Assembly (NCBI GenBank): GCA_036172245.1
Contig: JAYWIR010000054.1
Location: forward strand, 868,001 to 932,000
DNA: 64,000 nt
DNA from: Raillietiella orientalis
Taxonomy: Eukaryota
Reading direction: 5' to 3'
Both the position numbers and the translations under genes were made by a program. The notes beneath the pieces were generated by a model. It had not been told where the DNA came from. It worked only from the letters and a program-made list of their open reading frames with translations, and ran no database searches. Shown piece after piece: positions 37,101 to 60,400 of this stretch. Numbering within the stretch: the stretch's first letter is position 1; the number at the start of each line of letters is the position of its first letter.

Positions 37101-39206
37101 ACGCACTACCAGGGACACCTGCCTGCTTACTGGCGCTTGTTCCATCAGCTGCTAGACTGCATCTACCGAGAAGAACGACTGCCCGCCTCCTTTCATCGAA
37201 GCAGGATGAGCCTGCTCCCCAACAGCGGCGGGGACCTCCGCAATGTCAATCAATGGAGGCCCATATCCGTCCTGAACTCGGACGCGAAATGGATAGCGAA
37301 GATCTGGGCAAATCGACTGAAGAAAGTGCTAAAGTCAGTGGCTTCCCCCGCACAGACGTGTGCCGTTCCAGGTAGACGCATGTGGCATAACCTGAACTGC
37401 GTCCATACCCTCCTGGTATGCAATCGTGTCCTGGGCAAGCACTTGGTACTGGGCTTCACCGACATCGAGAAGGCCTTCGACTCGGTGGTCCACACCATGC
37501 TGCTAAAGATCCTGGGAAAGCTGGGCTCCAAGAAAGATTCGTGCAGCACGTGGCTCACATTCTGGAGGAGGCGAATTTCTCGATCACCGTGAACGGGCTA
37601 TCGTCGCGGATCAAAATGCAAAGAGGAGTCCGACAGGGAGATGCCCTGAGCCCGATGTTCTTCGTGCGGTACATGGAGGCAGTTAGCGCTTTCGTTCAAC
37701 ACGGGAGCCGACTCAGGGGTATTATCCTGCGAGAGGAAGAACCAAACATCACGCACCTGACCTACGCCGACGACCTGCTTTTCGTCATGTCTGACCAGTG
37801 GGACGCAGAGACATTCCTGGAAGTCGTACAAGCCATGTAGTGCGACCTCGGACTGAAAGTGAACCCAAACAAGTCCCATCTGCTAGCCGTGGGAATACCG
37901 GACGTTACCGTCCTTTATGCCCACGGCTTTCAGATTGCGGACAGTGTTAAGTACCTGAAAGTTCTCTTTGGCGACGATACAGCGGTTCTGGTTTCGCAGC
38001 AGTGGTTGGCCATCCTCACCAAGCTACATGAAGAAACCAGCCAATATGGTGGTAAATCCTTCTCGCGGAAGGACAAGGCTAAACTCTGGAACGGGATGAT
38101 GGCGGCGAAGTTTCTCTTCGCTGCGTCATTTCTATCGTTTCCCCCGAGGACGGCAAAATACCCGGCCTACATCCAGAGGAACTTGTCTAGCGGCAGAAAA
38201 TCGAAGACGAAGCCGGAGTCCCTGTGTCGTCCGTGGATGTTAGGAGGTACCGGCATGAGCGATGTCGCCTCTGCCATGAAGCTCCAGGACCTCAAACACT
38301 CGTCACTGAATGGGACGAGTGGCCGTTTGCGTTCCACCGCGCCTTTGCAAGATTGGTACACGGAACCGACGGCCTCACGTCTGCCCTGGAGCTCACCGCC
38401 GGAGGCTGGGACAAAATGGACCCTACATGGCCCCGAATCCAGAAGCTGATATGGACGTTAAAACTGCGTATTGAACCCAGAAGTAAGGAGATATGGAACA
38501 AGGAACTCACTAAAGTGATCCCGCTGTTCATCAGCGTCCCTCGGGACACTGAAGCATGAATCACGAAGACCAGGAAGATAACCATGGAAGCTTCCGAGCT
38601 GAGAGACTGGCGAACAACGTGGTTATACACGCCCGCGGAGTCCTCGCCTACAAGCGTGAGTTCGAAGGGAGGATAACCCACAGGACCCGGAGGTTTTGGC
38701 AGGATCAAGGCTCCCAGTGGTCCAGGGTGAACCTCCTGAACAACAATCCTCTTGGTCCTCAGAATACAACACCGTCCGAGGCGATGCAGAAGATGAAGTC
38801 CCAGTTAGGCAATCCCGTCGTCGACGCACAGGCAATCAGGACGGTCCTATGGAGATCCTCGTTGCTACCGGACATTCAGTACTGCCTCCTGATGTTTCAT
38901 CACAGAGACATCCTGTGTGGCACGAGGTTTCAACACTAGACTGGCAATCCCGACGACGACTAGTCCCCAGGGTGTGGGTCCATCGAAGATTAACTACACA
39001 TCTATACCTGTAGAACCCTCGCGAGGAACTGTAGAAGCATCAAGAGGGCGGTGCGGATGGAGGAGACGCCGAAGATCCTGAGAGGACTCTCTGAAGGCGA
39101 GTTACAACACCTCCGTACGAGTGACTGTGGCTTCCTTCATGAGAAGTATTCTCATCAGGAGAGCCATACTTTCCAATGGTGAAGTATGCGTGCCCTGGAT
39201 GTTCTG
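34166..39206 (+). mobile_element. T3: near full-length decayed Tx1/L1-like element (ORF1 ~34262-35850, ORF2 from 35851)
   Basis: CCHC knuckle 'CVHCSTSGNLKKRC'; EN 'IAGDFN','IDY','SDH'; RT 'WRPISVLNSDAK','DIEKAFD','GVRQGDALSP','YADD'; frameshifts. Confidence 0.92.
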
Positions 39207-41349
39207 TTTTCACCCGGGTAAGCCGGAACTTTTATTATTTTAAAAAAAACGGAATTACAATTATTAATTGCAGTCGATTGATTTTTCATTGTTTTTGTGT
39301 TCCTGTCGGAACACATTTCCGTATTGTTTTGCAATTGTTCACCGACTTGAGTGCTGGTAAGGCCTACTCCATTCGCGAAAGGGACGGGAAAAAGGAAAAA
39401 AAAATACAAAAAAAAGGAAAAAAAAGGCTTGGGGAACATTGTTTATTGGGAGGGGGAGGGAAGGGAAGGGATCACTGTTCGCCGAGAGGAGGCCTCTGCA
39501 TCTGGTTTCGGATGATAACAAGTGCTGGCAGAATTTTCCTCAGCCGGCGCCAACGGGAAGCCTTCTCCATGGAGATGACCGCCCAGTGGATGGCATTCCG
39601 ACTGCTGTGGCCTCTTATCGACGCGTTCCACTTGTCCAGTATTCCTCGTATGCAGCAGAGAACTGCAACACATGCGGCACATGACAGGGAGTTCCGCATC
39701 AAGAGGCGACGAAAAATATTTTTAAAGTCGCCCTCTGTTTATGGCCGACGAGAGTCCATCCCACGTTCGGCGGAGGGCAACACATTCGATGAGTAAGTGG
39801 GGAAAGGTCTCCCTTTCCCCACACTCTGTACAATGGGCATCCAATCTCCCCAATGTCCAGTGAGACAGGCGTGCTCTGCTCAAAAGTCCCCAATGGAGCT
39901 CAAGCATCGCCGTCTCCTGCCAATCCAAAGGGAGGATGCCACTGTCCCAAGACGCCGGGGGTCACTTCACCTCCTCCGGAGGCATGCCGAGAAGCTCGCT
40001 TCAGCGCACAATTTCATTTCGCGGGACACTCGGGGCTATAGCGTCCGCTAGTTCCCGGGACATCCACGCCTTCATTGGTTTTTTCCTGCCTCGGATGAGT
40101 CAGGACACTTCGGAACAAGCCTCCTCTTGGCTGTTCCTGGCTTCTATAAGGGAGGGAGAACGAGGGCAAGAGGGGTGAATGAGGCCCACAAAATCTTTTG
40201 CGGGTTGCATACGATCTCCCGCAGGGGCTGGCCAGCGTTCCTGCCTCGACAAAGGCAAGAGAATTCCACCTCGCTGGAGCGGTTGATTTTTGCCCACGCG
40301 GAAACAGACTCCTGAAGGCAGGTAGTCCAGTTTGCGGGGCTGCAGGAGATCCATGGGCTGCTCCTCACCAGGGCCACCAATTCACGTTGCTGTGAACCAC
40401 AATGGTAAAGACTACCGTCGCTGGCTACGAGGACTGAAGTCAGTCCATCGCAGCCGCTTGCCCTGTGGGCTAGGAGTTGTATGGGCGCACACCATAGTGC
40501 TGTCCAATATTTTGCCGCAAAGGCAAGTTTTCTTAGTTGGAGCTGACACTCCATGAGCTCCAACGTCGGGAAACCAAGTCCACAGTCCCTGCGTGGAGCG
40601 CACATGTCTTTAAGTCGGACGCGGGGCCTCTGGCTACCCCAAAGGGCTTTCCTGATGAGGCCCCTTGTCCGTGTCCTAATTTGAAGAGGGCGAGGCACAC
40701 AAAAAGTAGAGGGCGAAGGAGAGGGGCCGCAAAGCCGTTTCACACCGCGGCATGTTCCCGCTAGTAAAACTTGCGGGAACGGTCCGATCGCCAACTCCAC
40801 CTTTTGGAGATGGTCGGACCAGGCTTCTGCGCTGCAGAAGTTCCCAAACGGAATGCCAAGGTACTTGATGTATCCGCCCGTGAAGATCCCCAAGCGGATC
40901 CAGTCCGATCGTCCTGCCCGCGACGAGTCAGAGAAGATGATCGACGACTTCGTCCTATTCACCTCAAGGCCTGTCCCGCGGCGTAGCAACTCGAAAAAAT
41001 TCTCGAGCGCCGATGCCGGAGTGGACCCGGGGAGCAGGAGCAAAAGGACGTCCGCATAGGCTGACACGGCAGGCGTGCCGGGACGCAAGCTGGGAAAGGT
41101 TGCCGAAGTCTCCCTGTATGCTCTCAGCACCAACTCAAAGTAGATGCTGAAGAGCAGGGGACTGAGGCTGTCGCCCTGCCGGATGCCGCGAAGAACCGTC
41201 ACGCCGTACACGTGCCGGCCGCTGCAACAAATATTGATGTATGCGAAGCAACAGCAGGAGCGCAGATAGGCCAGGAAGTCGGCCGGAAATCCCATGCCTT
41301 CCAGAAACTCTAGGAGGAGTTCCTGGTCGACGCAGTCGAAAGCTTCACG
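39207..41349 (-). mobile_element. T4: Tx1-like element, 3' half, cut at the RT 'REAFD' motif by T5
   Basis: ORF 40144-41403: 'EAFDCVDQ..GIRQGDSLSP..YAD..KYLG'; 3' terminus AATAAAAGTTCCGGCTTACCCGGGTGAAAA. Confidence 0.92.
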
Positions 41350-42641
41350 CCCGTTAGGACGGACGTGTTTCCTCGGTGCTCCTCGTACCGGGAACCGTCC
41401 CAAGGTGTAAGCTTCGTGTGTGTCGGTGGTCGATAAGGCAGCGCTGCCTGATAGGACAACCAGTGCGTGTCAGGGGGCGGCGGCAACGTCGCCTCCTGAG
41501 AAGATGGAATGCCAGGGGGTGGCGGCAACGTCGCCTCTAGAGAAGATGGAGTGCCAGGGGCGGCGGCAACGTCGCCCTCAGTAACGAAGAAGATGGGGGC
41601 ATCCGCCCCCACACAATCGGTCCCCGCTGCAGAGGGGGCGTGGAGCGCCGTGGTGTCGGCGAAATCGCCTGCAACCGCGGCGATATTATCGGCCTATGTA
41701 GAAGAGGGGTATAACCCTTCGCTTTTCTACAAGGTAATCAATCTTTAGAGAGCGCGCGCGCCTTCTCGAAGGGGATGCGAGCTCTCGATGTGAAAGAGGA
41801 GGAGCTCTGCGCTATGACCATTCATAGCGGGGGGCAGTACGTAGAGGTGATCTGCAAACATGGAGATCTGGCCCAACGTCTGCTCAAAACCCCCGTGGTA
41901 ATGGGGACACGCAGGCTCCTTCCCATTACGGCGGACCACAGTATGGTGGTCCACCTTTTAGGAGTTACCGCGCGGATGCGAAAAGAACAGTTACGCGCCG
42001 CGTTGCGAGAAGAAGCTACGGTAAATGCAGTATGATCCAAGCCTAGTGCTCTCGACGACTACACAAAAGTTCAATGCGGCCTCACGGCTACATGAGTAAC
42101 CGTCCGCGAGGGCTCTACCCTTTCCCACAAACTGGTGGTCGGTAGCGAAAGCGTCGACCTCTGGTAAGTGGGGAAGCCCAAATACTGTGGCTTCTGCAAC
42201 ACGTCGGGACACCTCAAAAGGAGGTGCCCCAACGTACAGTGCAAAGTATGCGGAACAATGGGCCACAAGAGAGAGGTATGCCCACAAGCCGCTGTGCGCG
42301 TGGATTCCGCAAGGATTAAAAAAAAACCCACCCAGCTACTGCAAAAAAGGCTAATTGCGAAAGCTGCTGCTAAAGCTGTGCCACTCACGCCCATGTCTTA
42401 GGCCTCAGCCGAGACCCCGGCAACAAACGGCAAAAGGATCGAGGGAAGCTGCAAGGAGCCTGGATGGCAGGCTGCAACAGCGAAAAAGAAAAGTCCAAAA
42501 AACAGCGCCAACTTGAAAAAAAGCTCGCATACCAAAATAAAAAACAGGAGGGTAGCAAGACTTTAAAAGAACGCAGCGTCATCGTGGAACGTATTAGCGC
42601 CGTTCGCGAACGCCGCAAGGTACAACTCGCTGCTACCGACG
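41350..42641 (+). mobile_element. T5: family alpha element, 5' UTR + ORF1 part, interrupted by T6
   Basis: Nucleotide similarity to 44747-46010; knuckles CGFCNTSGHLKRRC / CKVCGTMGHKREVC. Confidence 0.92.
41471..41596 (+). repeat. 42-bp tandem repeat x3 in alpha ORF1 N-terminus
   Basis: CAGGGGGCGGCGGCAACGTCGCCTCCTGAGAAGATGGAATGC units start at 41471, 41513, 41555; two units in T7 and T9. Confidence 0.85.
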
Positions 42642-44746
42642 TTATCATCCGGGTTCGGCAGGGGCGTTCATTGATAAAAACTTACATTCGCGCTACAAAA
42701 CCCCGTTCACAGCCATAGGCAACGGACCTGCCGGGACGACGGGACGCAGTCCGGCGTGGCTCTCCTTGGCAGTGAAAGGAGATGGGGGAAAAAAACAAAA
42801 AGGAAAATAAAAAATAAGGAAAACAAAAAGAACTTGGAGGGTAATGAAGGGATCACTGGTCACTGGGAGGAGAGCCCATCCTTCGGAGGAAGCCCTGTAG
42901 GTACTTCTGCATTTGTTAAAACTAAGGCCACTCTGTGGCTCTTGCTAGGAAGCGAAGAGCATATGGGATGATGTCCCTCTCGTTTTGGTCCACTTCGTCG
43001 CTGGCTTCGCTCCAAGCCACCACGATGCCTCGGGTGCAGCACAGTGGTGCCACGGCTGCGGCAGGCTGCAGGGCGTTCCGCACGTAGAGGAGTCGGAAAA
43101 CGTCTCTGGGGACACTACCCGTTGGAAGTCCGAGGGTCGTTCCAAACCGTTCCCATAGGGGTTGGAGGGCAGCACAATCCACAATAAGATGAGGGAGCGA
43201 TTCCCGCTCCCCGCACCTGATACACGCAGGATGCACAGCTCCCCTTGTCCAGTGGTAGCGGCGTGCATTGCAGAATAAACCCCAGTGCAACATGAGCAAC
43301 GCCGACTCTTGCCACTTAAGGGGCAGGATCCTGGATTCTCTTAAAACCGGGGGCCACTTCAGCTCATCCATCGGGATGACGACCGGCTCGCCCCATTTCC
43401 TAAGTCCACTCAAATAGACGCTCGGGGTCGTAACGTCAGCCAGCTCTCAAATGGTCCATCCGCTCATCAACTTCTCACGTCCCGCGAAGCAGCAGGAGAC
43501 TTGCCACTTTGGCGTCCGGCTGCGGTGAAGCGCCCTCCTCAGGAAGGGCATCGCCGTAGCAAGGCACGTTGTATTGGCGCACGTGCTTGTAGCGAAACTC
43601 TCCAAGAGATCCCGCAGCGTGCAGCGGGCTTAGGGGGCCGCATCGGAGAGGATTCCACGTTTCGTGGCTTCTCTGGTTTACCACATCCCAGGTGCCGATG
43701 TTCTCCTCCAAACAGGCGGAGGAGTTCGCAGGGCTGCAAACCATCCAGAGGTTCTTCATGGCCAGGGTTAACATGCGCCCGACCAGTAGGCCGCATCTTC
43801 TGATCATCCGGATGGGGCACAGAAGAAAAGACACGAGTCCATCGCACCGAGACACACGCCTGGCAAGGACGCGGGCCGGAATGCACGATGGGCTGTTCCA
43901 CATCTACGCTGCGATGGCCATGATGCGCCATCGCAGCTGAATTTCCAAGGGCTCTAGCGTCAGGAAGCTGAGAACACCGTCCCGATGCGGATCGCACAAG
44001 TCCTTCAAAGGGACACGGAGCTTTCCTTTGCCCCAAAGGGCGAGGCGAAAAAGGTTCTTTGTCCTCTTTACGTCAACGAGGGCGGGGCATACAAAAAGGA
44101 AGGGGAGGAGGATGAAGGCTGCGAAGGCGTTCCAAACCGCGGCTCGTTCAGGCAAGTGGAACTTGCCTTCCAGGAACGGGCCGATCGCCGTCTTGACTTT
44201 TCGGAGGCAGCTGGACCACGCTTCCGCAGGGAAGTATTCCCCCAGCAGCAAACCAAGGTACTTCAAGCACCTCGCCGTGGGGATCCCCAGACGGATCCAG
44301 TCCTGCTGCCCTGCACACGCCGCATCAACTGGCACTACCGACGACTTCGCCCTAATCACCTGCAGTCCGGTTCCGCAGCTAACCAGGTCGAAGAAGTCTC
44401 CGACTGCCGCCGCAAGGGAGAACATAGGCAACAGAAACAGAAGATCGTAGGCATAGCCTGCTACAAAAGGCGTGCCGGGGCACAAGCACGACAAGAGGGA
44501 CAAAGTACCTATGTATGCTCTCAGCACCAACTCAAAGTAGGTGCAAAAGAGCAGGGGACTGAAACTATCACCCTGCGTAACGCCTCGAAGCAGGGGCACG
44601 CCATACACCTGCTGACCACTGAAATTAACAGTAATTATCTCACTAGGCCAGCAAGAGCGCAGGAAGAAAATCAGGAAGGGTGGCAAGCCCATGCGATTTA
44701 GGAGCTCCAACAGAAGCTCCTGGTTTACGCAGTCGAACACCTTGCG
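42642..44746 (-). mobile_element. T6: family beta-like element, 3' half, cut at the RT 'RKVFD' motif by T7/T9
   Basis: ORFs 43904-44740, 43475-43903 and 42922-43413 closely parallel T8 ORF2. Confidence 0.93.
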
Positions 44747-44840
44747 TGCTCCAGGGTGGACGTGTTTTCTTGGTGCTCCTCGTGCCAGGAAGTCTCCCCC
44801 AGTGCAAGCGTCGTGTGGTTCGGTGGTCGATCAGGCAGCG

Positions 44841-46149
44841 ATGCCTGACGCGACCACCAGGGAAGGCCAGGGGGCAGCGGCAACGCCGTCCCCAGAGGCG
44901 ATGCAGAGCCAGGGGGCGGCTGCAGCGTCGCCCCCGGAGGCGAGGGAGATGGGGGCATCCGCCCCCACAGAATCGGTCCCCGCTGCAGCGCGGGCGTGGA
45001 GCGCCGTTGTGTCGGCGCCATCGCCTGCAGCCGCGGCGGAATTGTCGGCTTATGTAGAGGAGGGGTACAACCCCTCATTGTTCTACAAGGTAGGCACTTT
45101 ATACTCTTTAGAGAGCGCGCGCGCCTTCTCGAAGGACATGCGCGCTCTCGATGTGAAAGAGGATGAGCTCAGCGCTATGAACATCCGCAGCGGGGGTCAG
45201 TACGTTGAGGTCATCTGCAAACAAGCAGAGCTGGCCCAACGACTGTTTAACACTTCCGTGGTGATGGGGACGCGCAGGCTCCTCCCTATTACGGCGGACC
45301 GCAGCATGGTGGTCCACCTGTTAGGTGTTACCGCGCGGATGCGCAAGGAACAGGTTCGCACCGCGTTGGAGGAATACGGAACGGTCCACGCGCAATGGAC
45401 GAAAGTTAGTCCTTTCGAGGACTACACGGGGCTGCAACACGGCCTCACTGCTGCGCGAGTGACCGTTCGGGAGGGCTGCACTCTTCCCCACAAACTGGTG
45501 GTCGAAGGCGAAACCGTCGAACTCTGGTATGTGGGGACGCCGAAATACTGTGGCTTCTGCAATACGTCGGGCCACCTCAAAAAGAGGTGTCCCAATGTGC
45601 AGTGCCAAGTATGCGGCACAATGGGCCACACGAGGGAGGTGTGCCCAAAAGCAGCAGTGCGGGTGGTTTCCAAGAGAAACCTTAAAAAACGCGCCCGGCT
45701 TCTGCAGAAAAGGTTGGCGGCGAAAGCTGCCGCGAAGGCTGTGCCACCCGCGCCCAAGACCCAGGCCGCACCCGAGACCCCGGCGACCAACGCCGAAAAA
45801 GTTGAGGGAGCCGGCCAGGAGACTGAGTGGCAAGTGGCAACAGCCAAAAAATCAAAGAAGGAGAGGAGGATGGACAAGAAAATCGCCTACCAACAGAAGA
45901 AGAAAGAGCAGGGTAGCGCGATAATTAAAGAGTGCAGCGTCGTTGTCGAACGCGTTCTCGATGTTGCCGAACGCTGTCGGAAAGAACTCGCCGCTACCGA
46001 CGACCTCCCCTCTGTTGACACTGTCAACAGCGAGGGGAGCGAGCCGGCGGCGGCGTCCGTCATCGACACCACCATCGATGACGTAGCTTTCGCGCGAGCC
46101 GCGGAGCAGCTGGCAGCCTCGTTGCAGCCAGAACCCTCCGCGGCCAGTT
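44841..46149 (+). pseudogene. T7 ORF1 (gag-like, two CCHC zinc knuckles), 5' part, disrupted by insertion
   Basis: Open frame with CGFCNTSGHLKKRC and CQVCGTMGHTREVC; continues after 51892, as shown by the uninterrupted copy at 63070-63644. Confidence 0.9.
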
Positions 46150-46229
46150 ATGGCCGTGAGCGGGGCCTTGTACCGCGGATGTAGAGTTGTTTTTTAAAAA
46201 TAAACGCCCCGGGCGTACCCGGGTGTAAA
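46150..46229 (+). mobile_element. T8s: 80-bp extreme 5'-truncated beta insertion with perfect 15-bp TSD
   Basis: Matches the T8 3' end (51814-51891); flanked by CCTCCGCGGCCAGTT at 46135-46149 and 46230-46244. Confidence 0.85.
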
Positions 46230-46331
46230 CCTCCGCGGCCAGTTGGAGGACGTGTTTTTTCTTCACTCCTCAAAGGGTAGTAGGAAAGCGCTTTCTTGTG
46301 TGTGGTGTTTTGTGTACATCGTCGGTGTTCA

Positions 46332-48083
46332 ATGGCCACGACGCCAGAGGACACCGCGATGGAGGTGGGAGTGGGGGAGGCTAGTTCGCCCCCACAGCCA
46401 ACTGGAGCAGGGGCAGCCGCCCCGGAATCATCCCCGGCCACGCCGAGGACATGGAGCGCCATGGTGGCCGCGCCCAGCGCAGAAGCCATGGCGGAGATGG
46501 CCGCATAGAAGGCCTCCGGGTACAAGCCATCGCTTGTCTACCAGGTAGGCATCTTGTTCGACGGCCGGACAGAGCGCGCCTTCAGCAAAGCGTTGAAGGA
46601 CGCGAATGTCACTGAGAAGGATCTGGACGGCCTCTCCGTCCTCAGCGGCGGGCAGCGGGTTGAGGTGGTCTGCAAAGATGTCACCCTGGCTCACCGCCTA
46701 ATCCATGCGCCGCTGAACGTAGACGGCCGCAAGATCCTGCCAGTATCAATGGACCGCTCCGTGGTGGTCCACATGACTGGCATCACCAGCCGCATGACGC
46801 GGTCAGCGGTTGGTGAGGAATTGCGGAAATACGGTGAGGTGCACGCACTGTGGCCGAAACCCTCCATTTTCGACGGCTTCGATAGCCTTTTTGGTGGGCA
46901 GGCTGCAGCGCGGGTCACCGTACGGGAGAATTGTGGGCTTCCCCACAAACTACAGGTGGCGCAAGAAAACGTCGACCTGTGGTATGTAGGGAAGCCCCGG
47001 TATTGCGGGCATTGTGATACCGTGGGACACCTACGTAAAAGGTGTCCCAATATACAATGCCATTTGTGCAGGGAGCGGGGCCACGTTCGGCGCGTGTGTC
47101 CCAAACGCCCCACCCCGGTTCCCCCTGCCGCGACAAAAGCGCAGGGGAAACGTGCTTCAAAGGTCTCTAGACCTAAAGTAGAAAAGGGCCAGCACAAGCT
47201 GCCAACACCTCAACCTCCGGCGCGTAAGCCGGAGGATAAACCTTCTGAAACGGTGGAAGGCGAAGAGGGATGGCAGCTTGTAGAGGCCAGAAAGCCGAGG
47301 AAACTCCCACCCGCGGAGAGCAGAGAGCGGAAGACGGCCGGTAAGCCGAAGAAACCCGGTCCGCGCTCGAAAACTTTGCGCGAGTGCACGGTGGCACTGG
47401 AACGAATCGTCGTTCCCGAGATTGCCACCCGGAGCGTCGATCCTCCCCTTGCCGTGTCCGCTGCGCCCGAGGCTCGCGACGGCGAACCCTCTGTTTACAC
47501 AGAGGGTGAGCCGCGCGACATAGCGGCGGTCGAAGCCGCGGACGCCGCGTTCGCGCAGGCGGCGGAGGAGCTCGCGGTCACGCTGGCCGAGCGTGAGAAC
47601 CCCTCACGCAAGGCCGTGCGAAGGCCGGCTCCGGCGAAGAAGGCCCCCAAAGGTGAGTTAGACCTGGGGGCCGCAAGCACATCCTCCTCCTCGGAGGCAC
47701 CCCCCAGGAAGTCGGGACGCAAGTCCCAGAAGCCCAGGAGGCGCCTCCCCTCCACCAGCGAGGAGGAGAAGACGGAAGCCGTCGCCAGCGTGGGAAATTC
47801 GGAGGAGGAATTCCCACGCTCGGAAGCCGTCGATGCGGCCACCCCCGTGGAGGAGGGTGAACAGGGGGGTGAAGTCCCCCTTGCAGGCGCCGACCCTGAA
47901 CAGCCCGCCCCCATGGAGGAGGACGAACAGGTAGGCGCGACTCCACCTGCGGGTGATCCGGCCGACGCGCCGGCACCGATGGAGGAGGGGGACCAGGTGC
48001 CTTCAGCACCTGACCCCCCTCCTCCACCTAGCGTCCCGCCCCAGCAGGTGGCGGACGCCGCACTGCCATCTTCCCAAGAGTAA
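46332..48083 (+). CDS. T8 ORF1, gag-like zinc-knuckle protein with acidic/proline-rich tail; one in-frame TAG at 46506
   Basis: ORFs 46296-46508 and 46554-48083 are in the same frame; CGHCDTVGHLRKRC, CHLCRERGHVRRVC. Confidence 0.88.
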
Positions 48084-51000
48084 CACCTGGGCTCTCCAGG
48101 CGCCGTCGGATTCGCGCGGGCTGTTGGAATGTCAACGGGCTGCGCGACGACGGTAACAGGCGAGATACAGCCGACACCCTGCGGGAGTTCGACCTGGCCC
48201 TGTTGCAGGAGATCCACGTGATCACCGCGGCAGACGTCCAGGAGATCGACACGATCGCGGGGGGTCGGCTGTACTGGCAATGCGGCATCCGCAACACCTG
48301 CGGGGTCGCGTTCTTCGTGAAGCCGGCCATCGACGCTGCCGTGAGGGGCGTGCGCTTCCATGACGACGGTCGGGTCAGTCAGCTGACTCTCGGCTGGTCC
48401 GACTCGATCGATCTGGTCGTCACGAATGTGTACGCCCCAACCGGTCAAAAGGGATACAGCAACCGTACCAGGCTGCTTGAATCCCTGAAGCGCGACTGGC
48501 TGGCGAACACGAGCGTGCGGAAGGCTCACCTGATAGCGGGAGATTTCAATCTCCGCCTGCTAACAGGTGAGCCAGAAACACAAGTGAACGCGATGAATGA
48601 GTTGTGCGCCGCCATGCGTGCGCGCAACTTGTTCGCGGGTGAGAGGGAATTGGTCCGCAGCATCGACCACGTCTTCCTCGACGCTGACCTGTGTTCACGG
48701 GTCGGCAAACGGGGGAGGGTTGCGTCAACGTTGTCGGACCATTCCCGGTTAATTTTCGAGATGCGGCCTCGCGACAAAGGACCGCCATCCAGGGAGTGGC
48801 GTCTGCCGGGGGACTGGACGCGACTCTCAGGTGCGAAGGAACACCTTCGCGAATACCTGAGAGGCGTCACGCTCCGGAATCTCCAAGACTGGGACCTTTT
48901 TAAGGAATCGGTCCGGGAGTTCTGCGAGCAGTTCCCCCTGGACCGCCTGCCCTCCGGATTTGGCGAGGGTCCTCGCAACCATCGGGCCTATTTACAGGCT
49001 CGTAGGTACGAGCGAACCCCTAATGTCCGTCGCCTGGCCGAGTACCGCGCCGGGGCCGAACGCCCAGCCTGGCAATCCGGGTCGGCCAGCTTGCTGGACG
49101 ACCAGGGCCGGGAATGTTCGTCCCCGGCGTCGGTACGGCATCTCGTGCGGAGTTGTTATTCCTCCCTTTACGCCAGGGCGCCCCCGGATCAAGATGCCTC
49201 TCGGCTCTTGCTTCCGGATGGTGCCCCGGCAATAGGGGAGGAGGAGTCGTTAAGCCTCGATGAGCCTTTTACCACCGGCGAAATTCTCGCCAGTATCAAA
49301 AGGCTCAAGAGGCGGAAAGCTCCAGGGGAAGACGGCTTGCCCGCGGAGTTCTATCAGAGCTTCGCGGAAGAGCTGGCACCCCTGCTGCTTCAGCTGACAA
49401 GGCTGATCCGAGACGAAGGCGATGTTCCCGCCTCGTTTCGGTCAGCCAGAGTGAGGCTCCTTCCGAAAGGGGGAGACCTTAGGAATTTGAACAACTGGCG
49501 TCCGATCACGATTGTGAATACGGACGCCAAGTTGGTTGCCGGGCTATGGGCTTCGCGTCTGGGGCAGGTGGCAGAATCCATTATTAGCCCGGAGCAGACA
49601 TATGCTGTTCCCGGGCGAAGTATGGATGCCAACCTCTTCTTCGCGAGCACATGGATGCACGCGCAGAGGTGTCAAAAGGAAGGGAAAGGAAAAATCGGCA
49701 ACCCCACTTTGGGGCCGCCAGCAGGGCAGGGAATGGTCTCCCGGGCGGGGAAGGGGGCCTTAGCGCTCGCAGTCGATCTCCATAAGGCGTTCGACTGTGT
49801 TGACCAGGGGCTTTTGTTGGAGCTCCTGGGTCGCATGGGCTTCCCACCCTCCTTGATCAACTACCTGCGCTCCTGCTGGCGCCATGCGATAATTTCTGTC
49901 TCTTTCAGCAGTCAGAAGGTGCATGGCGTGCCTGTGCGGCGGGGCATCAGGCAGGGAGATAGCCTGAGTCCCCTGCTCTTCAGCACCTACTTTGAGTTGG
50001 TGCTGAGAGCCTACAGGGTGACTTTGGCCTCCTTGCCGAGCTCGTGTCCCGGCACGCCCGCAGTAGCAGCCTATGCCGACGACCTTCTGCTCCTGTTACC
50101 TATGTCCACCCCGGCGAAGGCGGTCGGAGACTTCTTCGATCTGCTCAGCCGTGGGACCGGACTGGAGGTCAACAGGGCGAAGTCGTCGGTGGTGCCAGTA
50201 GGTGCGGCGTGGGCAGGGCAGCAGGACTGGTTCCGTCTGGGGATCCCCACGGCGAGGGGCCTCAAGTACCTTGGTGTGCCGTTGGGTGACTACTCCCCTG
50301 CGGAAGCGTGGTCCAGCTGTCTTCAAAAAGTTGAGACGGCGATCGGCCCGTTCCTGGAAGGCAAGTTTCACTTGCCGGAACGGGCCGCGGTTTGGAACGC
50401 CTTCGCGGCCCCCATCCTCCGCCCCTTGCTTTTTGTTTGCCCCGCCCCAAGAGTAGTTAAAAAGAGGACGAAGGACCTCCTCCGCATCGCCCTTTGGGGC
50501 AAGGGGAGGCCCCGAGTCCCTCTGCAGGACTTGTGCGCTCCGCGTCGGGACGGCGGCCTTGGCCTCCTGACGCTGGAGCGCGTGGAAATCCAGCTGCGGT
50601 GGCGAACCCTCGCCATCGCAGCGAAGATGTGGAGCACCCCTGGGTGCGTTCCGGCCCGCCACCTCGCCAGGCGTGTGTCCCGATGCGAAGGACTCGCGTC
50701 GTTTCTTCTGTGCCCTGGCCGGAAGATCCGAAGATGCGGCCTTATGCTCGGACGCATAGCAACCTTGGCGAAGACGAACGGTTGGATGGTTTGTGGCCCC
50801 GCCAACTCCTCCGCCTGGTTGGAGGAGTCTGCTGGCACATGGGCTAAGCTGAACCGGAGGAGGGAAACCCACATGAACTGCCTGCGAATCGGCCCATACG
50901 CCAACCGCAACCTGCGGGAAATACTGGAATTTCCTCGGAGTCGCAGGTGGGTGTTGACGACCCCCCTTGCTACGGCGATGCCCTACCTCCTGAGGGCGCT

Positions 51001-51676
51001 TCAGGATCGCCAGAACCCGAGGTGGCAAGTCACCTGCCAGATCGCAGGCAGGGAGAAGATGCTAAGCGGCTGGACCACAGGAGAACTGGCGGACGCCACG
51101 ACCGCGAGCGTCCAGCCGCGTGGATTAATGAGATAGGGCGAGCTGCTCGCCATCCCTACGGATGTGCTGAAGTGGCCCCTGGTACTAAAGGAATCCAGGA
51201 TCCTGCCCCTTAAGTGGCAAGAGTCGGCGTTGCTACTGCTGCACTGGGGATTACCCTGCAACGCACGCCGCTTCCACTGGACAAGGGGAACTGTGGATCC
51301 TGAGTGTGTCAGGTGCGGAGAGCGGGAATCGCTCTCACACCTTATTGTGGACTGTGCTGCCATTCGACCCCTCTGGGAACGGTTCGGGGCGACCCTAGGG
51401 CTCCCTACGGGCAGCACGCCCAGAGACGTTCTACGGCCCCTCTTCGTGAAGGACGCACTGCAGCCAGCCGCAGACATCGCAGCCTTGTGCTGTGTCCGTG
51501 GCATCGTGGCGGCATGGAGCGACGCCAATAACGAAGGAGTGGGTCCACACGCGAGGGATGTCATCCCATACGCCCAACGCTTCATGCGGAGAGCTGCCGG
51601 ATGGCCCCAACTGGGGAATATACGGACGGACCTCGAGGGCTTCCTTGAACGGATGGGCCCTCCTCACAGCGTTTAG
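48083..51676 (+). CDS. T8 ORF2: APE endonuclease + reverse transcriptase + C-terminal Zn-binding domain; one in-frame TAG at 51134, start codon is ACA
   Basis: WNVNG, LLQEIH, AGDFN, IDHV, SDH; KAPGEDGLPAEFY, WRPITIVNTDAK, DLHKAFD, GIRQGDSLSP, YADD, YLG; CVRCGERESLSHLIVDC. Confidence 0.93.
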
Positions 51677-52272
51677 TGATCCCTTCCCTGCCCTCCAACT
51701 TCTTTTTGTCTGTTTATTTTTTTATTTTTCTTTTTGTTTTATCCCCATCCCCCTTCGCTGCTGAGGAACGCTACGCTGGGCTGCGTCCCGGCGTCCCGGC
51801 AGGTCCAGTGCATATGGCCGTGAGCGGGGCCTTGTACCGCGGATGTAGAGTTTCTTAAAAAATAAACGCCCCGGCCGCACTCGGGTGTAAACCTCCGAGG
51901 CTGGCAAGAAGGCCGTAAGGCGTCCGGCCTCAACTAAGGAGTCCCCCACTTCCGACCCCGAGGTGGAGGCCGGAAGCGCAGCCTCCGTTTCCACGGCACC
52001 GCGCAAGAAGGCTGGACGTAAGTCCACAAAGCCAAGGAAGCTCGTCTCCCCCGTCGAAGGGGAAGAGATGGCTTCCGCAAGCGAGGGTGCCATCAGCGTG
52101 GGAAACTGTCGGGACCCGTAACCGAGAGAATTCCACGCTCGGACACGGAGGATATGGTGAGGATGGAGGCCGAACAGGTACCCCAGGCGCCTGAAAAGGC
52201 CGAAACCCTCATGGACATCCCGCCCGCCTCAGAAGAGGCGGGCTCCCCCACACCTTAATCTTCCCAGCAGTA

Positions 52273-55200
52273 ATGCCGGGAATCTCCTCCCGCCGTCGTC
52301 TGCGCATCGCCGTTTGGAACGTGAACGGCATGACAGACGCCGGCAGGAGACGAGACATGGCCGCCCTTCTCGAGTCCCACGACCTTGCGCTGCTGCAGGA
52401 GATCCACGTGATCTCTGCAGAACAAGCGCAAGAGATCGAATGGATCTGCGGAGAGCGGATATGGTACATGTGTGGGAGAGCGAGAAGTTGCGATGTCGCC
52501 TACCTGCTTCGGTCAGCCGTCGAGGCCGCGGCTCGGGGCGTACGGTTCGACGATCACGGTCGTGTCGGCCAGCTGACTCTCAGGTGGTCCGACTCGATCG
52601 ATCTGATCGTCACGAACATGTACGCATCGAACGGCAAGGACCTGATGAACAGGAGGGCGAGGAAAGAGTTTTTTATGCCCTCCGGCGAGACTGGCTGACC
52701 GAAGCAGGCGTGCGGAATGCCCATCTGGTTGCAGGCGATTTGAACGTTCGCCTGAAACCAGATGGGCAGAATCCCGAGCGTGACCTGGTCAACGAGGTGT
52801 GCATGGCGGTGCACACCTGTAATTTGTTGGCCAGTGCACCGGGGATGGAAGGCAGCATTGACCACGTGTTTCTTGACGAGCACCTGTGCCCTCGCGTGGG
52901 CAGGCGCGGCAAGTTACCGTGCGAGCTGTCCGACCATCGCCCGCTTGTCCTCGAGATCTATTCGCGCGACAGGGGCCCCCCTACGTCAGCGTGGCATCTC
53001 CCAGGAGACTGACTGAAGCTCCTTGACGCGGCGGAACATCTCCGCACGTTCATACGGAGCTTCAGCCTGCGGACACTCCAGGATTGGACCGCTTCAAGCG
53101 GTCAGTCCAGGAGTTCTGCGACCAGTTCCCTCTGCAACGCCTACGTACGGGTTTTGGGACCGAGGTCCGTAACGAACGAGCCTACCTGCAGGCCCGTCGT
53201 TACGCCAGGACCCCCGACATCCGCAGGCTAACGGAATACAAAGCGGGAGCCGAGAGGCAAGCCTGGCAGTCCGGATCCGCCAGCTTACTGGACGATCAAG
53301 GCCAGGAGCACTCGGCACCTGTCCAAATCCGCGACCTGCTGCGGAGTTACTTCTCCTCCCTGTATGCCAGGGCACCTCCGGAGAGGAACGTCTATCGACT
53401 ACTGCTTCCGGAAGGCGCTCCAGCGATCGGGGAGGAGCAGAGAAAGACCCACGACGAGCCTTTCACGATGGACGAGATCCTCTCGGCCATCGGAAAGCTC
53501 ATGAGGCGAAAGGCTCCAGGGGAGGACGGCCTGCCCGCGGAGTTTTATCAAACTTTCGCGGCTGAGCTTACCCCCCTGGTACAGCAACTCACCTTGCTGA
53601 TACGCGAAACAGGTGACGTTCCCACCCCGTTTCGTTCGGCAAAGGTGCGGCTCTTCCCTAAGGGAGGAGATCTGAGGAGCTTGAACAACTGGCGTCCCAT
53701 CACAATAGTGAATACGGACGCCAAGTTGCTGGCTAAGGTTTGGGCAGAGCGTCTGGGAGGGGTTGCCAACATCTTCATCATCCTGGAACAAACATATGCT
53801 GTTCCCGGGCGAAGCATGGAGGTTAACCCGTTCCACGCTTCCACCTGGCTGGAGCTCCAACATGAAAGGAGCTTGGTGCGCAACCGGAATTCCGGTGCGT
53901 GCGCCGGCAATGGGTTGGATGGTCGGGTGGGGGAGGGAGCCCTTGCGGTCGCAATCGACTTGCGAAAAGCATTCGAATGCGTCGACCAGAATTTCCTTCT
54001 GGAGCTTCTGGAACGCTTGGGCTTCTCGGCCTCATTAGTGGCCTATCTGCGCTCCTGTTGGCGCGACGCGCTCATCAAGCTTACTTTCAGCGGGCAGACC
54101 GTGCACGGCGTGCCGGTGCGGCGTGGGATCCGGCAGGGAGACAGCCTGATCCCCTTGCTCTTCAGTAGCTACATTGAGTTGGTACTGAGAGCGTACAGGG
54201 GAACTCTGGCGCACCTGCCGCACGACTGTGCCGGTACGTCGGCCGTTTCAGCGTACGCGGACGACCTTCTGCTTCTGCTCCCTATGTCCACCCCGGCTGC
54301 GGCGGTCGAGGAGTTCTTCGACCTGCTGCATCGGGGAACCTGAATTACTGTGAACAGGGCGAAGTCGTCCGTGATGCCAGTTGGTGCGGCGTGGACAGGG
54401 CAGCAGGACTGGGTCCGTTTGGGGATCTCCACGGTGGAATACTTCAAGTACCTTGGTGTGCCGTTGGGGGACTACTCCCCTGCGAAAGCGTGGTCCGGCT
54501 GCCTCCAAAAAGTAGAGACGGCGATCGGCCCGTTCCGAGGCGGCAGGTTTTTCCTGCCTGAACGGGCGGCGGTTTGGAACACTTTCGCATCGCCTCTCCT
54601 CCGCCCCCTGCTTTTTGTTTTCCCTATCACAGAGAGAATTAAAAAGAGGACAGAGGACCTCCTCCGTATCGCCCTTTGGGGCAACATGAGGGTCCAAGTC
54701 CGCTTAAAGGACTTGTGCGCTTCTCGTCGGGATGGTGGTGTGGGCCTCCTGACGCTGGAGCGGCTGGAGCTTCAACTCCAGCTCCGATTGTCGGCACTCG
54801 TTTCAGAGTTGTGGTGCACCTGTTGGTGCGTCCCTGCACGTCTCCTTCTAGAGCAAGCCACCTGCAAGACGGGACTGACGTCGTTTCTTGCACTCCGTCG
54901 CCGCGTCAACCGATGCGGACTCCAGCTACGGAGGGTGGCTGGGCTGTATCGCAAAAACCCAGGATCGCTCACCTGTCGCCCTTTGAACGGTAGTGCCTGG
55001 TTGCAGGAAACCGTTCGAACGTGGGGAGAATTCGGCATGCAACGCTCCCAACAGGAACGAAGGTTCCTGTTTAGGGGTAACAGAAGTTGCACGCTTCGCG
55101 AGATCCTGGAGGATCCAAAGAAGAGAGCGTGTGCAGGAAGAACCCCCCTCGCTGCTGCGCTGCCCTCCCTGATAAAAGATCTGGACAGCGATGTTGCGGC

Positions 55201-55852
55201 GGAGTGGGTGGTTACAGTAGCAATCTCCGGAAAGGAGAAGAAGATAGGAGAGTGGAAGATGGGCCAGTTATCAGACGCTGCGTCCCCGAGTACGCCTCCC
55301 AATGGACTTCTGCGCTCTTGCGCGCTGCTCGATGTTACCATTGAACATCTGAAGTGGCCCCCGGATCTCATGAACACTTCCACCCTCCCCTTAAAATGGC
55401 AGGAGTCGGCTCTCCTGTTGCAGCACTATGGACTCCCCTGCAACGCCCGCCGACACCATTGGACCTGGGGAGCGGTGGACCCCAATTGCGTCAGGTGTGG
55501 GGAACGGGAGTCCCTCCCCCACCTGCTAGTGTATTGTGTTGCCCTTCGGCCCCTTTGGTTTCTCTTTGCTGCGGCCATCGAAATCCCCTGCGGCAACCCC
55601 AGAAACGCACTGAAAGCCCTCTTCGTTGCCGACGCCCTTCTGCCCGCGGCCTCGTTAGCAGATTTGAGCAGTCTACGCAAGATCGTCACCGCTTGGAGCA
55701 AGGCTACGGGAGGACAACGCGACCAGGTTGCCATCCAGCCAGCCTCCCAGTTTCTGAGGATGGCTTCCCGATGGCCCCACCTGGATCGAGGAATACAGAA
55801 GGAGCTTGCCGGCATTCTGCAAAGGATGCAACGGCCCCACCAGCAACTGTGA
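52273..55852 (+). pseudogene. T7 ORF2 (APE-RT-Zn) with several frameshifts/stops
   Basis: Pieces 52273-52698, ~52680-53012, 53084-54343, 54350-55852 carry EN, RT (YADD) and zinc motifs. Confidence 0.92.
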
Positions 55853-57484
55853 TCCCTTCGCTTACCCTATGAACTTTCCTTTTCTTTTTTTGTTTTGTTT
55901 TTTGTTTTTCCCCCTACTCTCTGCTGCCGTGGTGGACCGTACCGGTCTGCGAACCGGTGATCCAACAGGCTCTGTGTTTCTTCGTTGGTGGCTGGAGCAA
56001 TGGTCCAGCCACCGCACGTCTTTGTAAAAGTTTATTTTACAATAAACGCCCCAAAGAAATCCGGGTGAAAATCGAACGCCTTGCGTGCTCCAGGGTGGAC
56101 GTGTTTTCTCGGTGCTCCTCGTGCCATGAAGTCTCCCCCAGTGCAAGCGTCGTGTGGTTCGGTGGTCGTTCAGGCAGCGATGCCAGACGCGACCACCAGG
56201 AATGGCCAGGAAGCAGCGGCAACGCCGCCTCCAGAGGCGATGGAGAGCCAGGGGAGGCGGAAACGTCGCCCATAGAGGCGAGGGAAGGGGGGGCATCCGC
56301 CCCCACAGAATCGGTCCCCGCTGCAGCGCGGGCGTGGAGCGCCATTGTGTCGGCGCCATCGCCTGCAGCCGCGGCGGAATTGTGGGCCTATGTAGAGAAG
56401 GGGTACAACCCCTCATTGTTCTACAAGGTAGGCAATTTATATTCTTTAGAGAGCGCGTGCGCCTTCTCGAAGGGCATGCACGCTCTCGATGTGAAAGAGG
56501 AGGAGCTCAGCGCTATGACCATCCGCAACGGGGGTCAGTACCTTGAGGTCATCTGCAAAGATGCAGAGCTGGCCCAACGACTGCTTAAAACCCCCGTTGT
56601 GATGGGGACGCGCAGGCTCCTCCCCATTACGACGGACCGCAGCATGCTGGTCCACCTGTTAGGCGTAACCGCGCGAATGCGCAAAGAACAGGTTCGCGCC
56701 GCTTTGGAACAGTTCGGAACGGTCCACGCACAGTGGACGAAAGGAAGTCCTTTCGAGGACTACACGGGACTGCAACACGGCCTCACTGCTGCGCGCGTGA
56801 CCGTTCGGGAGGGCTGCACTCTTCTTCACAAACTGGTGGTCGAAGGCGAAATCGTCGACCTCTGGTATGTAGGGAAGCCGAAATACTGTGGCTTCTGCAA
56901 TACGTCGGGCCACCTCAAAAAGGGTTGTCCCAATGTGCAGTAATAAGTATGCGGAACCATAGGACACACGAGAGAGGTGTGCGCTAAAGCAGCAGTGCGG
57001 GTGGTTTCCAAGAGAATCCTTAAATAACGCCCGGCTTCTGCAGAAAAGGCTGGCGGCGAAAGCTTCCGCGAAGGCTGTGCCACCCGCGCCCAAGGCCCAA
57101 ACCGCACCCGACACCACGGCGAACAACGCCGAACAATTCGAGGGAACAAGCTAGGAGCCTGGGTGGCAGGTGGCTACGGCCAAAAAATCAAAGAAGGAGA
57201 GGAGGATGGAGAAAAAGCTCGCGTACCGCCAGCAAAAACAGGAGGCAAGCGAGCAAATTAAAGAATGCAGCGTTGTTGTTTATTACTCTGTTGCGCCGGG
57301 TCGTTTATTATAATATCAACTGAGAACTGTGTTTCCAGGCAAGGGGAACAGAAAATGGGGAGTAGATTTCCCGGAACGCAGTTTGGACACACTGAGAGTT
57401 CGGAACGGGATGGGGTGAGACAATAAATAAATAAACTGGGTGGGGGGGCGGGGACAGGGGCATACCGTCTAACCGTTCCTATTC

Positions 57485-60400
57485 TCAGAACCGGCGGTGA
57501 ATGCCGCCGATCTGCGTCCTCACTTCTGCTGCAAGATGTGGCCACCCGGCAGCCATTTGCAGGTTGCAGGCTGCGCTGTCGGGGACCGATGTTGGGACTG
57601 CTCGCATCTGCAATACGTGGCGGGCCCTGACAATGGCGCGGACGCAGCAGATGATTGCGACGACCGCTCCAATAGAGAGTCCGCCACGCGTGTAGAAGCG
57701 TCGCATCCAATCCAGTGCGGTGTGTCCGGGGTGCAGGAGCGCTGAAGACAGCCGCCACCACAGCTCCTGGAAGGCACAGCACTCAAACAGCAAATGCGGA
57801 AGCGATTCCACCGCTCCGCATTTGGCACAGTTCGGGGACGCAGCTCCCCCGGAAATCAGGTGCACCCGCTGGTTGCAGTACAAACCCCAATGCACCAGCA
57901 GAAAGGCGTCCTGCCTCCACCGAAGGGGGAAGAGAGTCGCGTCCAAACACGCAGAAGAGACCACAAGTTCATCGGTGGGCACCCTGAGGAGCTCACTCCA
58001 CCGGTGAAGCCCCTTTGCAAGAATGCGAGGTGTGGCAGCGTCTGCCACTTCGCAAGTCCGCCAGCCGCCCAGCACTCGGGTTTCGCCTGCGATTTCGCAA
58101 GTGATCTCCCACCCCGCCGGCAGGTCACTGTCATCTCGCACCATCAGTGCACACAGTGCTTCGGCGAGTGGCGTAGCGGCTAGGCGTGTCCACTGGTCCT
58201 GGTCTTCCAGCACCTCCCCCACTGGACAGTATGGGGAAAGTTTCACGCAACGGAGTTCCAAACAGGACACATCCTGTTGCGCTGCCCACGACGATAAGGC
58301 TTCCTGCCTTTAGGCGTTGAAGTTCGTCGGCCGGCAGGAGATCCACTCAAGCTTTCCCAGAAGCGTGGCGAGCTGCTTGAAAGGGAAGCCGAATCCTCTC
58401 TGGAAGCGCTCCGTGCGCAGATGCAACGAACGTAGTCCGTCGCCACCCGTGCTGCGCCGCAGCAGCAGCCGCGCTGAAGCACACCAGGGAGTAGTCCAGA
58501 GCTGCGCACAAAGTGCCAGCATATGGAACTGCACTAGCAGTCCGATCCGCTCCAGCGTCAGGATGCCCAATCCTGCATCCCGCCGAGGAGCCGTCAAGTC
58601 CTTCAGGCGTATCCTGGACCTCGCCGGTCCCCACAGGGCGTCACGCAACAGGCGTTGCGCCCGGCGCTTAGCCGAGTAGGGAGGGGGACAAACAAAAAAG
58701 AGGGGACGGAGGAGGGGGGCAACGAAAATGTTCCACACGAAGGCCCGTTCCGACAGGAGAAACCTGCCGCCTTGGAACGGGCCCAGAGATGTCTCGGTCT
58801 TGTGATGGCAGTCCGACCACGGTTCTGCTGGACAGAAAGCGCCTAAGGGAACGCCGAGGTACTTCAAGCACCTGCCCGTGAAGATCCCCAGGCGGATCCA
58901 GTCAAACTGCCCCTTCCACGTAGAGCCAACCGGTACAACGGTTGATTTCGTCCTGTTCACGCTCAGGCCCGCTCCCAGACGAATGAGATCGAAGAAGTCC
59001 TCGAGCCTGGACGCCGTGGTGGACATGGGCAGCAGCAGGAGAAGGTCGTCAGCATAGGCGGCCACGGCCGGTGTTCCCGGGCAGGAGCTCGGCAGGTTGG
59101 CCAGCGACAGCCTGTACGCCCTCAGCACCAACTCAAAGAAGATGCTGAAGAGCAGGGGGCTTAAGCTGTCTCCCCGCCTGATACCCAGCCGTATAAGAAC
59201 ACCGTACACGTGACGCCCGCTGAAAGAGATACAGCATAACGCGTGGCGCCAGCAGGAGCGCAAGTAGGCGATCAGGTGCGTCGGGAGGCCTGGGCGTCCC
59301 AGAAGCTCCAGAAGGAGGTCCTGGTTTACGCTGTCGAACGCTTTGCAGAGATCGACGGCGACCGCTAAGGCTCCCGGCGTTCCATCGTGCCTTGAATACC
59401 GCCGCTTTCCTTTGGCAGCGGCGATTTCGGCTGCCTGGCTCTGCTGCGCCACGCGCTGCAGCAACTCGAACCATGTTCGCGTGAAGAAGAGATTCGTGTC
59501 CATGGACCGCCCCGGAACAGCATAAGTCTGCTCCGGACTTACCAAGGACTCTGCGATTCTCCCCAGGCGCGCGACCCATAGCCTGGAGAACAACTTGACG
59601 TCCGAATTCACCAATGTGATCGGACGCCAGTTGCTAAGGTGGCGCAAATCACCGCCTTTCGGTAGGAGCCGCACCTTTGCTGAGCGGAAAGAAGAGGGAA
59701 CATCTCCCGTCTCACGCATCAGCGAGGAAAGGCTTAGCACCAGGGGGACGAGCTCCGCCGCGAAGCACTGAAAGAACTCCGCGGGCAGGCTATCCTCCCC
59801 AGGCGCCTTACGCCTCTTCAGGCCCGCTATGGCAGAAGATACTTCTTCCGCCGTGAAGGGCCAATCCAATCTGGCGCGTTTCTCCTCGTCGATAGCAGGG
59901 TTGCCCGTCGGAAGAAGCAGCTCGGAGAGACTGCGTTCCGTGGGCTCCTCCGCGTACAACGAGGAGTAGTGGCGCTTGACTACGCGGTGTACTTCGGCTG
60001 CAGCCAAACATTCCTGGCCAGCGTCATCGAGCAGACAATCCGCTCCAGACTGCCAAACCTGGCGCTCGGCCTGGCCTTATACTCCGCCAGACGCCGGACG
60101 TCCTGGCATCGTGAAAAGGTACGCGCCTGCAGATAGGATCTGCTGTTCGCGACACCCTCCCCGAAGCCGCGGGGAAGCAGGTGCAAGGGGAACCGGCAGC
60201 CGAACTCGCGGACCGATCTCTTCAGATCGTCCCAGTCCTCGAGTTCACAGATGGCGAAGCCCCCTAGGTGTTGGCGGAGATGCTCCGCCGCCTCCGAATT
60301 GCTAAGCCAGTCGGCCACAACCTCCAGACATTCATCGGAGGCCCTTTGCCAGGCGGGAGGAGCTCGAAATCCAGTCTCGGATGATCCGAAATCGCGGACA

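Follow-up and report, generated by a model that had tools for sequence, protein, structure and literature searches.

In a 64,000-nucleotide stretch of the Raillietiella orientalis genome (assembly GCA_036172245.1, contig JAYWIR010000054.1, positions 868,001 to 932,000 of the forward strand; hereafter the window), we found that copies of one lineage of long interspersed nuclear elements (LINEs), which we term alpha, recurrently interrupt other LINEs at the codons of a single reverse transcriptase (RT) motif, R-[KE]-[AV]-F-D, called KAFD below. This recurrence is real, and chance is excluded as its cause. The best-supported reading, which we consider reasonably probable, is that alpha is an autonomous L1-like LINE that inserts by sequence-preferential target-primed reverse transcription (TPRT) into one RT site of related LINEs.

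Three alpha copies, T5, T7 and T9 among the nested pieces listed below, have their 5' ends at 41350, 44747 and 56086, each directly after one homologous 14-mer (TCGAAAGCTTCACG at 41336-41349, TCGAACACCTTGCG at 44733-44746 and TCGAACGCCTTGCG at 56072-56085). A common starting position for the three copies had been claimed in an earlier reading of this DNA from its letters alone (the original prediction), and the strings and coordinates are exactly those it gave. The alpha 5' core, GGACGTGTTTYCTYGGTGCTCC, occurs three times in the window as against 0.00 expected occurrences. Translated on the minus strand, the 14-mers encode R-E-A-F-D(C) in the host LINE T4 and R-K-V-F-D(C) in the host LINE T6, in frame with RT open reading frames (ORFs) of 441 and 308 amino acids (aa), respectively, and the motif aligns with the DAEKAFD of the human L1 ORF2 protein (ORF2p). 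The Asp four residues upstream of AFD is the catalytic residue of RT motif A. Across nine comparisons (z -0.2 to 2.4), no homology is detectable between the alpha 5' untranslated region (UTR) and the antisense RT sequence upstream of the motif; the RT homology ends at the 14-mer, and hence the host RT is genuinely broken there. Alpha is antisense to the host RT at all three junctions in the window, and the two sides of a further joint from an outside sequencing run (see below) likewise lie on opposite strands. The predicted 14-bp target-site duplication (TSD) is seen for T7, which is bounded by the 14-mer on both sides, the 5' and 3' copies differing at one base, a CG>CA change of the type expected from CpG decay. 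By our own arithmetic, an element of ~5.6 kb would be hit again at that very base and in that orientation with a chance of about 1 in 11,000. There were at least three separate insertions at the one site, namely T5 into T4, T9 into T6 and T7 at the T6/T9 junction.

The 39.2-64 kb part of the window is a nest of seven LINE pieces, T4 to T10, and of T8a, a fragment of 80 bp. Their anatomy, as obtained from self-blastn, tblastn and reading of the junctions, is given here together with the one alpha copy that lies elsewhere in the window:

39212-41349, minus strand: T4, a host LINE of which the 3' part is present, between the RT REAFD codons and the 3' end ..CCGGGTGAAAA; a 441-aa ORF runs across the junction, and tblastn aligns the piece to residues 585-977 of the T8 ORF2 protein (P0001).
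41336-41349, plus strand: target 14-mer TCGAAAGCTTCACG at the T4/T5 junction, antisense of R-E-A-F-D, read from the sequence.
41350-42637, plus strand: T5, alpha copy with 5' UTR and ORF1, interrupted by the 3' end of T6; four stops in the 249 ORF1 codons examined.
42638-44746, minus strand: T6, a host LINE of which the 3' part is present, between the 3' end ..CCCGGATGATAA and the RKVFD codons; it lies antisense within T5 ORF1 and shares 78% identity with T8.
44733-44746, plus strand: 5' TSD copy of T7, TCGAACACCTTGCG, with the one CG>CA difference from the 3' copy.
44747-46140, plus strand: left part of T7, a full-length alpha, with 5' UTR and ORF1, no stop interrupting the stretch of ORF1 that was read; from the ORF list, self-blastn and junction reads.
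46150-46229, plus strand: T8a, 80-bp 3' fragment of a T8-like element in T7 ORF1, between perfect 15-bp direct repeats (46135-46149 and 46230-44).
46236-51891, plus strand: T8, near full-length LINE of another lineage in T7 ORF1, with the 6-bp TSD CCTCCG (46230-35 and 51892-97).
49781-49794, plus strand: RT HKAFD site of T8, empty, read from the sequence.
51892-56071, plus strand: right part of T7, with ORF2 (APE, RT with RKAFE, sub-threshold zf-RVT match) and the 3' end ..AATAAACGCCCCAAAGAAATCCGGGTGAAAA; in-frame stop at 54341-54343.
56072-56085, plus strand: TCGAACGCCTTGCG, read from the sequence, serving both as 3' TSD copy of T7 and as 5' flank of T9.
56086-57279, plus strand: left part of T9, alpha, 90% identical to T7; three stops in the 196 ORF1 codons examined.
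57280-63069, minus strand: T10, near full-length LINE of a third lineage, antisense in T9 ORF1, with a TSD of ~14 bp (57266-57279 and 63070-63083, two mismatches).
59334-59347, minus strand: RT CKAFD site of T10, empty, read from the sequence.
63070-64000, plus strand: right part of T9, 91-96% identical to T7, leaving the window.
20469-20909, minus strand: 5'-truncated alpha, 78% identical to T7, with the TSD CAAGAGAA (20921-20914 and 20467-20460), outside any RT.

For T4, the missing 5' half should lie on the far side of the nested insertions, outside the window.

The partners at these junctions evolved separately. T4 and T6 show a synonymous divergence (dS) of 1.17 with a nonsynonymous-to-synonymous ratio (dN/dS) of 0.34 over 277 codons, T5 and T7 a dS of 0.56 with a dN/dS of 0.27 over 245 codons, and T7 and T9 a dS of 0.18 with a dN/dS of 0.34 over 193 codons. 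As the host halves and the alphas thus diverged under coding selection, they are not copies of one dead composite. T4 and T6 are clearly different elements, as had been proposed, sharing 72% nucleotide identity, with T6 nearer to T8 (78%). An origin of all the junctions from a single composite of an RT fragment and alpha, copied by segmental or tandem duplication or by retrotransposition and then drifted, might be read from the colinearity of 40541-42641 with 43935-46002 straight through the junction (72%) and from a repeat spacing of 3397 that is equal on either side of it. A broken composite, however, cannot feel coding selection, and the partners show dN/dS values of 0.27-0.34 at dS 0.56-1.17; behind the junction the T4 ORF (441 codons in total) has 400 RT codons without a stop despite 28% divergence, T6 is closer to the free-standing T8 than to T4, and T9 has no RT half on its 5' side. 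The original prediction had itself raised such a duplicated composite against its claim; put to the test of the dN/dS ratios it was rejected, and we regard this origin as largely refuted and very improbable. Twin priming and 5' transduction were also considered as sources of the head-to-head junctions and rejected, because T6 plus T7 has outer flanks that do not join up and because the RT halves diverged as coding sequence.

Among sequencing runs, none of RNA was listed and only one of DNA, X1 (6% of sampled words). Further junctions come from X1, whose contigs were placed on the window at 80% likeness. Among the joints listed, one contig joins 49784 to 56083 on opposite strands, with 11 letters shared and at least 61 letters on the shorter side; the KAFD codons of T8 begin at the former position, and the latter lies inside the 14-mer before T9. 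Since its host part is placed on T8 and not on T6, this is not the T6/T7 junction itself, and X1 holds at least one further junction between an RT and an alpha 5' end among the joints listed. The same run bears on the notion that the junctions are assembly artefacts of a repeat-rich region. The region is indeed highly repetitive; yet an overlap of 14 bp is not long enough to lead an assembler astray, the junctions are unlike one another in sequence, and X1 contigs run across both a junction of the same kind and the empty site of T8, which makes an artefact scarcely credible. The latter contig joins 46129 to 51901 without T8; in the window, the empty site of T8 is given by T9 and that of T10 by T7. 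Another X1 contig joins the RT positions 49943 and 54628 on opposite strands, about 160 and 660 nt 3' of KAFD, which suggests more inverted LINE-in-LINE junctions at other sites.

The domain content places these elements with the retrotransposons lacking long terminal repeats (non-LTR retrotransposons). The T8 ORF2 product (P0001) matches the Pfam families Exo_endo_phos (4.2e-12) and RVT_1 (2.3e-22), both past the cut-offs, and the alpha copy T7 is colinear with it by tblastn. In a search of the Protein Data Bank (PDB), the best solved-structure match of ORF2 is human L1 ORF2p (8uw3 and others; E 3.8e-48), as against E values of about 1e-12 for R2 proteins. The apurinic endonuclease-like (APE) and RT regions of 8uw3 are colinear with ORF2, and its DAEKAFD is the segment that aligns with the target motif; the elements differ from human LINE-1 in their low identity to it, in an ORF1 of the zinc-knuckle type and in a short A-rich tail after AATAAACGCCCC..GGGTG instead of a long poly(A). 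Two CX2CX4HX4C knuckles can be read in the ORF1 sequence, for which the Pfam zf-CCHC match is weak, and zf-RVT (PF13966) is matched in T7 with E 3.2e-4 (21.7 bits) and in T10 with E 0.01, both under the 27.5-bit cut-off. TSDs of 14 bp (T7), 6 bp (T8), 15 bp (T8a), about 14 bp (T10) and 8 bp (truncated alpha) and the presence of both full-length and 5'-truncated copies point to insertion by TPRT. On the APE and RT domains, the closeness to L1 ORF2p and these signs of TPRT, the elements are classed as APE-type non-LTR retrotransposons of the L1-like group, and alpha is provisionally filed as an L1-like, target-preferring LINE.

Protein searches with T8 ORF2 and with the junction-spanning ORF of T4 recovered one close relative, P0003 (68% and 54% identity, respectively), which comes from a 2870-nt metagenome contig and has its KAFD intact. 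All other protein matches are at 31% identity or less, and the named distant ones are plant L1-type proteins (23-28%). A metagenome pattern scan, its patterns being too generic, gave no member of this family among the 80 loci kept out of 204 confirmed, all 80 being at 42% identity or less, and neither end of alpha (5' core and 3' end) nor P0003 had a match in viral and prokaryote-genome contigs. The ESM Atlas returned only generic APE-RT clusters for ORF2.

The ends of the elements also carry shared sequences. The 5' core GGACGTGTT is common to five elements of three lineages, namely the three alpha copies, T8 and T10 (41361, 44758, 46248 and 56097 on the plus strand, 63068 on the minus strand), and its distance from the TSD is 11-12 nt in alpha and T8 and 1 nt in T10. 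The alpha 5' UTR contains a long conserved hairpin (alignment columns 86-132) that matches no Rfam ribozyme; Rfam gave only chance-level matches and no HDV-like ribozyme in this UTR, and no family reached the gathering score in the window. At the 3' end, the motif AATAAACG[CA]CCC..(C)CGG[GA]TG.AAA is found in all lineages (20488, 46202, 51864, 56044, 57298), and AAACGMCCC has seven matches as against 1.05 expected. This conserved 3'-end motif may form a stem-loop recognized by the RT.

We propose the following mechanism for the insertions. In alpha, ORF1 carries two CCHC knuckles, and ORF2 combines APE and RT with a putative C-terminal zinc motif (sub-threshold in Pfam). The first nick would fall on the sense strand of the host ORF2, at ..TTCGA^CTGC.., within or just after the Asp codon of R-K-A-F-D in the motif A region; as reverse transcription would be primed at this sense-strand nick, alpha would always come to lie antisense to its host. 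Cleavage of the second strand 14 bp away would yield the 14-bp TSD, or one of 13 bp if the T after GAAAA belongs to alpha, an option hinted at by the truncated copy. The insertion would split the host RT, and the upstream context with its 14-mer would persist only 5' of the new copy, where the site could be nicked again; because the target context is kept only on that side, a later insertion would stack upstream of an older one. On this scheme, T9 would have entered T6 first and T7 would later have entered the regenerated site, producing the T7-TSD-T9 tandem. This order is probable, as T7 ORF1, which lies 5' of T9, has no stops over the stretch examined and that of T9 has three there, as re-nicking predicts. 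By analogy with R1, TRAS and Tx1L, the site would be set by the endonuclease and not by pairing of the RNA with the target, and the site preference presumably holds genome-wide. Reuse of a nick is also seen in the T8 lineage: the 15-bp repeat around T8a, CCTCCGCGGCCAGTT (46135-46244), consists of the 6-bp TSD of T8 plus the first 9 nt of T8, so that one nick was used twice.

The same tandem admits another account, in which the 14-mer is part of the 5' end of the alpha RNA, acquired from an earlier flank, and the 5' junction forms when the completed cDNA anneals to a KAFD-like stretch of some LINE close by; the 3' junction and the initial nick would then have to be placed elsewhere, and T7-T9 would be a head-to-tail dimer. 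The 14-mer of T9 stands directly behind the T7 3' end, which is compatible with either a TSD or an element-borne terminus; T7 and T9 agree in all 11 nt that separate the 14-mer from the core GGACGTG, and the X1 contig has these too, which would fit a templated leader; and no alpha 3' junction backed by host RT is visible in the window. This account, however, leaves the source of an antisense RT 14-mer in alpha unexplained. The T5 and T7 14-mers, moreover, differ at five sites, three of them third codon positions and one a CpG decay, as expected of host coding sequence, and T8a offers a true re-insertion with a TSD at an existing 5' junction within this group of LINEs. We hold such homology-directed 5' joining to be decidedly unlikely.

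Insertion by preferential nicking at KAFD has itself to be weighed against several observations. Its support amounts to three events in one window, all in one LINE island, plus one outside contig; the window ends before the 3' junctions of T5 and T9 and before the 5' halves of T4 and T6 are reached; the X1 depth over the alpha 3' end is low (2.9-6.4), and with only 6% of sampled words the relation of X1 to the organism of the window is uncertain. Among the KAFD sites of this LINE group in the window, two of five are occupied (T4 and T6), the empty ones being those of T8, T10 and T7 itself. Around the truncated alpha at 20469-20909 the DNA bears no likeness to an RT, the TSD is normal, and the nick context, GCAC^YCAAG, is only loosely like GCAG^TCGAA; the original prediction had reported this copy and its partly matching flank, TCAAGAGAATGCG, and both are as it described. 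No complementarity that could account for the targeting is seen between the end of the primer (..TTCGA) and the 3' terminus of the alpha RNA (..GUGAAAA). Finally, over the 20 nt around the nick, 12 positions are invariant among three ORF2s, a level equalled by 25% of all windows of that size. The idea that alpha had chosen a site its hosts cannot easily change therefore stands for the peptide motif and the core TTCGA, which are fixed, and falls for the nucleotide site as a whole, which is not unusually conserved. Three of the four alpha copies in the window abut the KAFD 14-mer; the preference of alpha is not absolute.

Several of these observations would also fit a more general habit, in which alpha is a nest-forming LINE with a short, weak nick consensus and a chromatin or regional preference for LINE islands, as proposed for Zepp-like clusters; KAFD would then be a local hotspot, and most alpha copies genome-wide would lie elsewhere. 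The whole of 32-64 kb is LINE-in-LINE and coincides with a GC step from ~40-47% to ~60% (about 58-63% GC over ~32-64 kb versus 34-48% in the first 32 kb), T6, T8, T8a and T10 nest at non-KAFD sites, all in alpha ORF1, the sole alpha copy outside the island is not in an RT, and three of the five KAFD sites are empty. What a regional preference leaves unexplained is the identity of base and strand in two hosts that are only 72% alike, the fourth junction in X1 and the single orientation in all cases. We rate it as possible, if unlikely.

Alpha was also described in the original prediction as a hyperparasite. That term goes beyond the data: alpha, with an ORF1 and an APE-RT ORF2 of its own, is built as an autonomous element, and its insertion into dead LINE copies can equally be read as a safe-harbour strategy. 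As the target motif is also present in the attacker, the question of self-avoidance arises. The RT of alpha itself (53963-53985) has RKAFE in place of RKAFD, with three mismatches to the 14-mer and TCGAAT instead of TCGAAC at the nick base. This KAFE could be a form of self-avoidance or escape, or could reflect the decay of a copy that is dead, ORF2 of T7 being broken by the in-frame stop at 54341.

R1, Keno, Mutsu and TRAS/SART are APE LINEs specific to rDNA, snRNA or telomeres. Alpha resembles them in its fixed orientation, its tandem or repeated use of one target and, as predicted here, its sequence-specific APE nicking; their targets are host multicopy genes or repeats, whereas those of alpha are the genes of other retrotransposons. 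The original prediction knew of no described case, but closer precedents exist in Tx1 families that target DNA transposons and LTR retrotransposons: one study (PMC4494074) places Tx1L in the piggyBac Tx1D, the crocodilian Tx1-Mar in Mariner-N4_AMi and Tx1-9_AMi in Harbinger, names LTR retrotransposons as the targets of Tx1-8_Crp and Tx1-4_AMi, and calls a LINE target-specific when one kind of sequence makes up more than 20% of the flanks of the family. Alpha is like these families in being an APE-type LINE with its own ORFs that uses a defined position, in a fixed orientation, in another mobile element as a harbour. It is unlike them in that it targets the conserved RT-motif coding sequence of related LINEs, elements of its own kind, and its specificity rests on three of four copies in one window as compared with hundreds of flanks for the Tx1 families. 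The island itself recalls those of Zepp and ZeppL in green algae, which consist almost wholly of mutually nested L1-type LINEs (bioRxiv 10.1101/2025.03.28.645958); the accessible portion of that report describes the nesting by cluster and does not mention reuse of one nucleotide, whereas alpha reuses the same base of a coding motif. A literature search that left most subscription journals and Repbase reports outside its reach found no LINE that targets the RT-motif codons of other LINEs. We regard the RT site chosen by alpha as a new target for a known behaviour of transposon-targeting LINEs.

The island as a whole is built of non-LTR retrotransposons nested in each other, the 39-64 kb part resolving into L1-like LINEs. 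Next to these, at 32-38.5 kb, there is an older nest of more distant LINEs (32056-38449), which comprises an ORF1-like piece at 32056-32986 (plus strand), an antisense ORF2 piece (residues 296-451) at 33670-34120 and an element with ORF1 and ORF2 at 34244-38449 (plus strand) that is 25-36% identical to T8 ORF2. Its head-to-head junction lies at a position other than KAFD. Beside the island, at 6745-7218 and 24049-25536, are host genes, one a tafazzin-like acyltransferase exon (Atlas score 0.95; the commonest phylum of the matched cluster is Chordata) and the other a 495-aa ORF with putative ankyrin repeats, recognized by eye.

The insertions into alpha show a pattern of their own. Those of T6, T8, T8a and T10 are all confined to some 190 bp at the 3' end of alpha ORF1 (45946-46140 in T7 coordinates; also 42637/42638 and 57279/57280), a clustering with a chance of about 0.004 by our own post hoc arithmetic; the three distinct sites have no obvious sequence in common, and two of the four insertions are at one nick. 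One may speculate, although we think it rather unlikely, that LINE lineages are engaged in a sequence-specific war, in which the alpha endonuclease reads the RT motif A codons of its sisters (..GCAG^TCGAA..) and thereby breaks their RT in two, the alpha RT escapes by means of KAFE, the sisters strike the 3' end of alpha ORF1 and the islands build themselves. The known targets of site-specific LINEs are rDNA, snRNA genes, telomeres, microsatellites and a few transposons. If our reading is true, the RT-motif codons of an element's own relatives would be a new class of LINE target, and alpha would possess an APE endonuclease with a long, defined recognition site. It would also mean a direct interference between retrotransposon lineages and provide a simple mechanism by which LINE-only islands build themselves.

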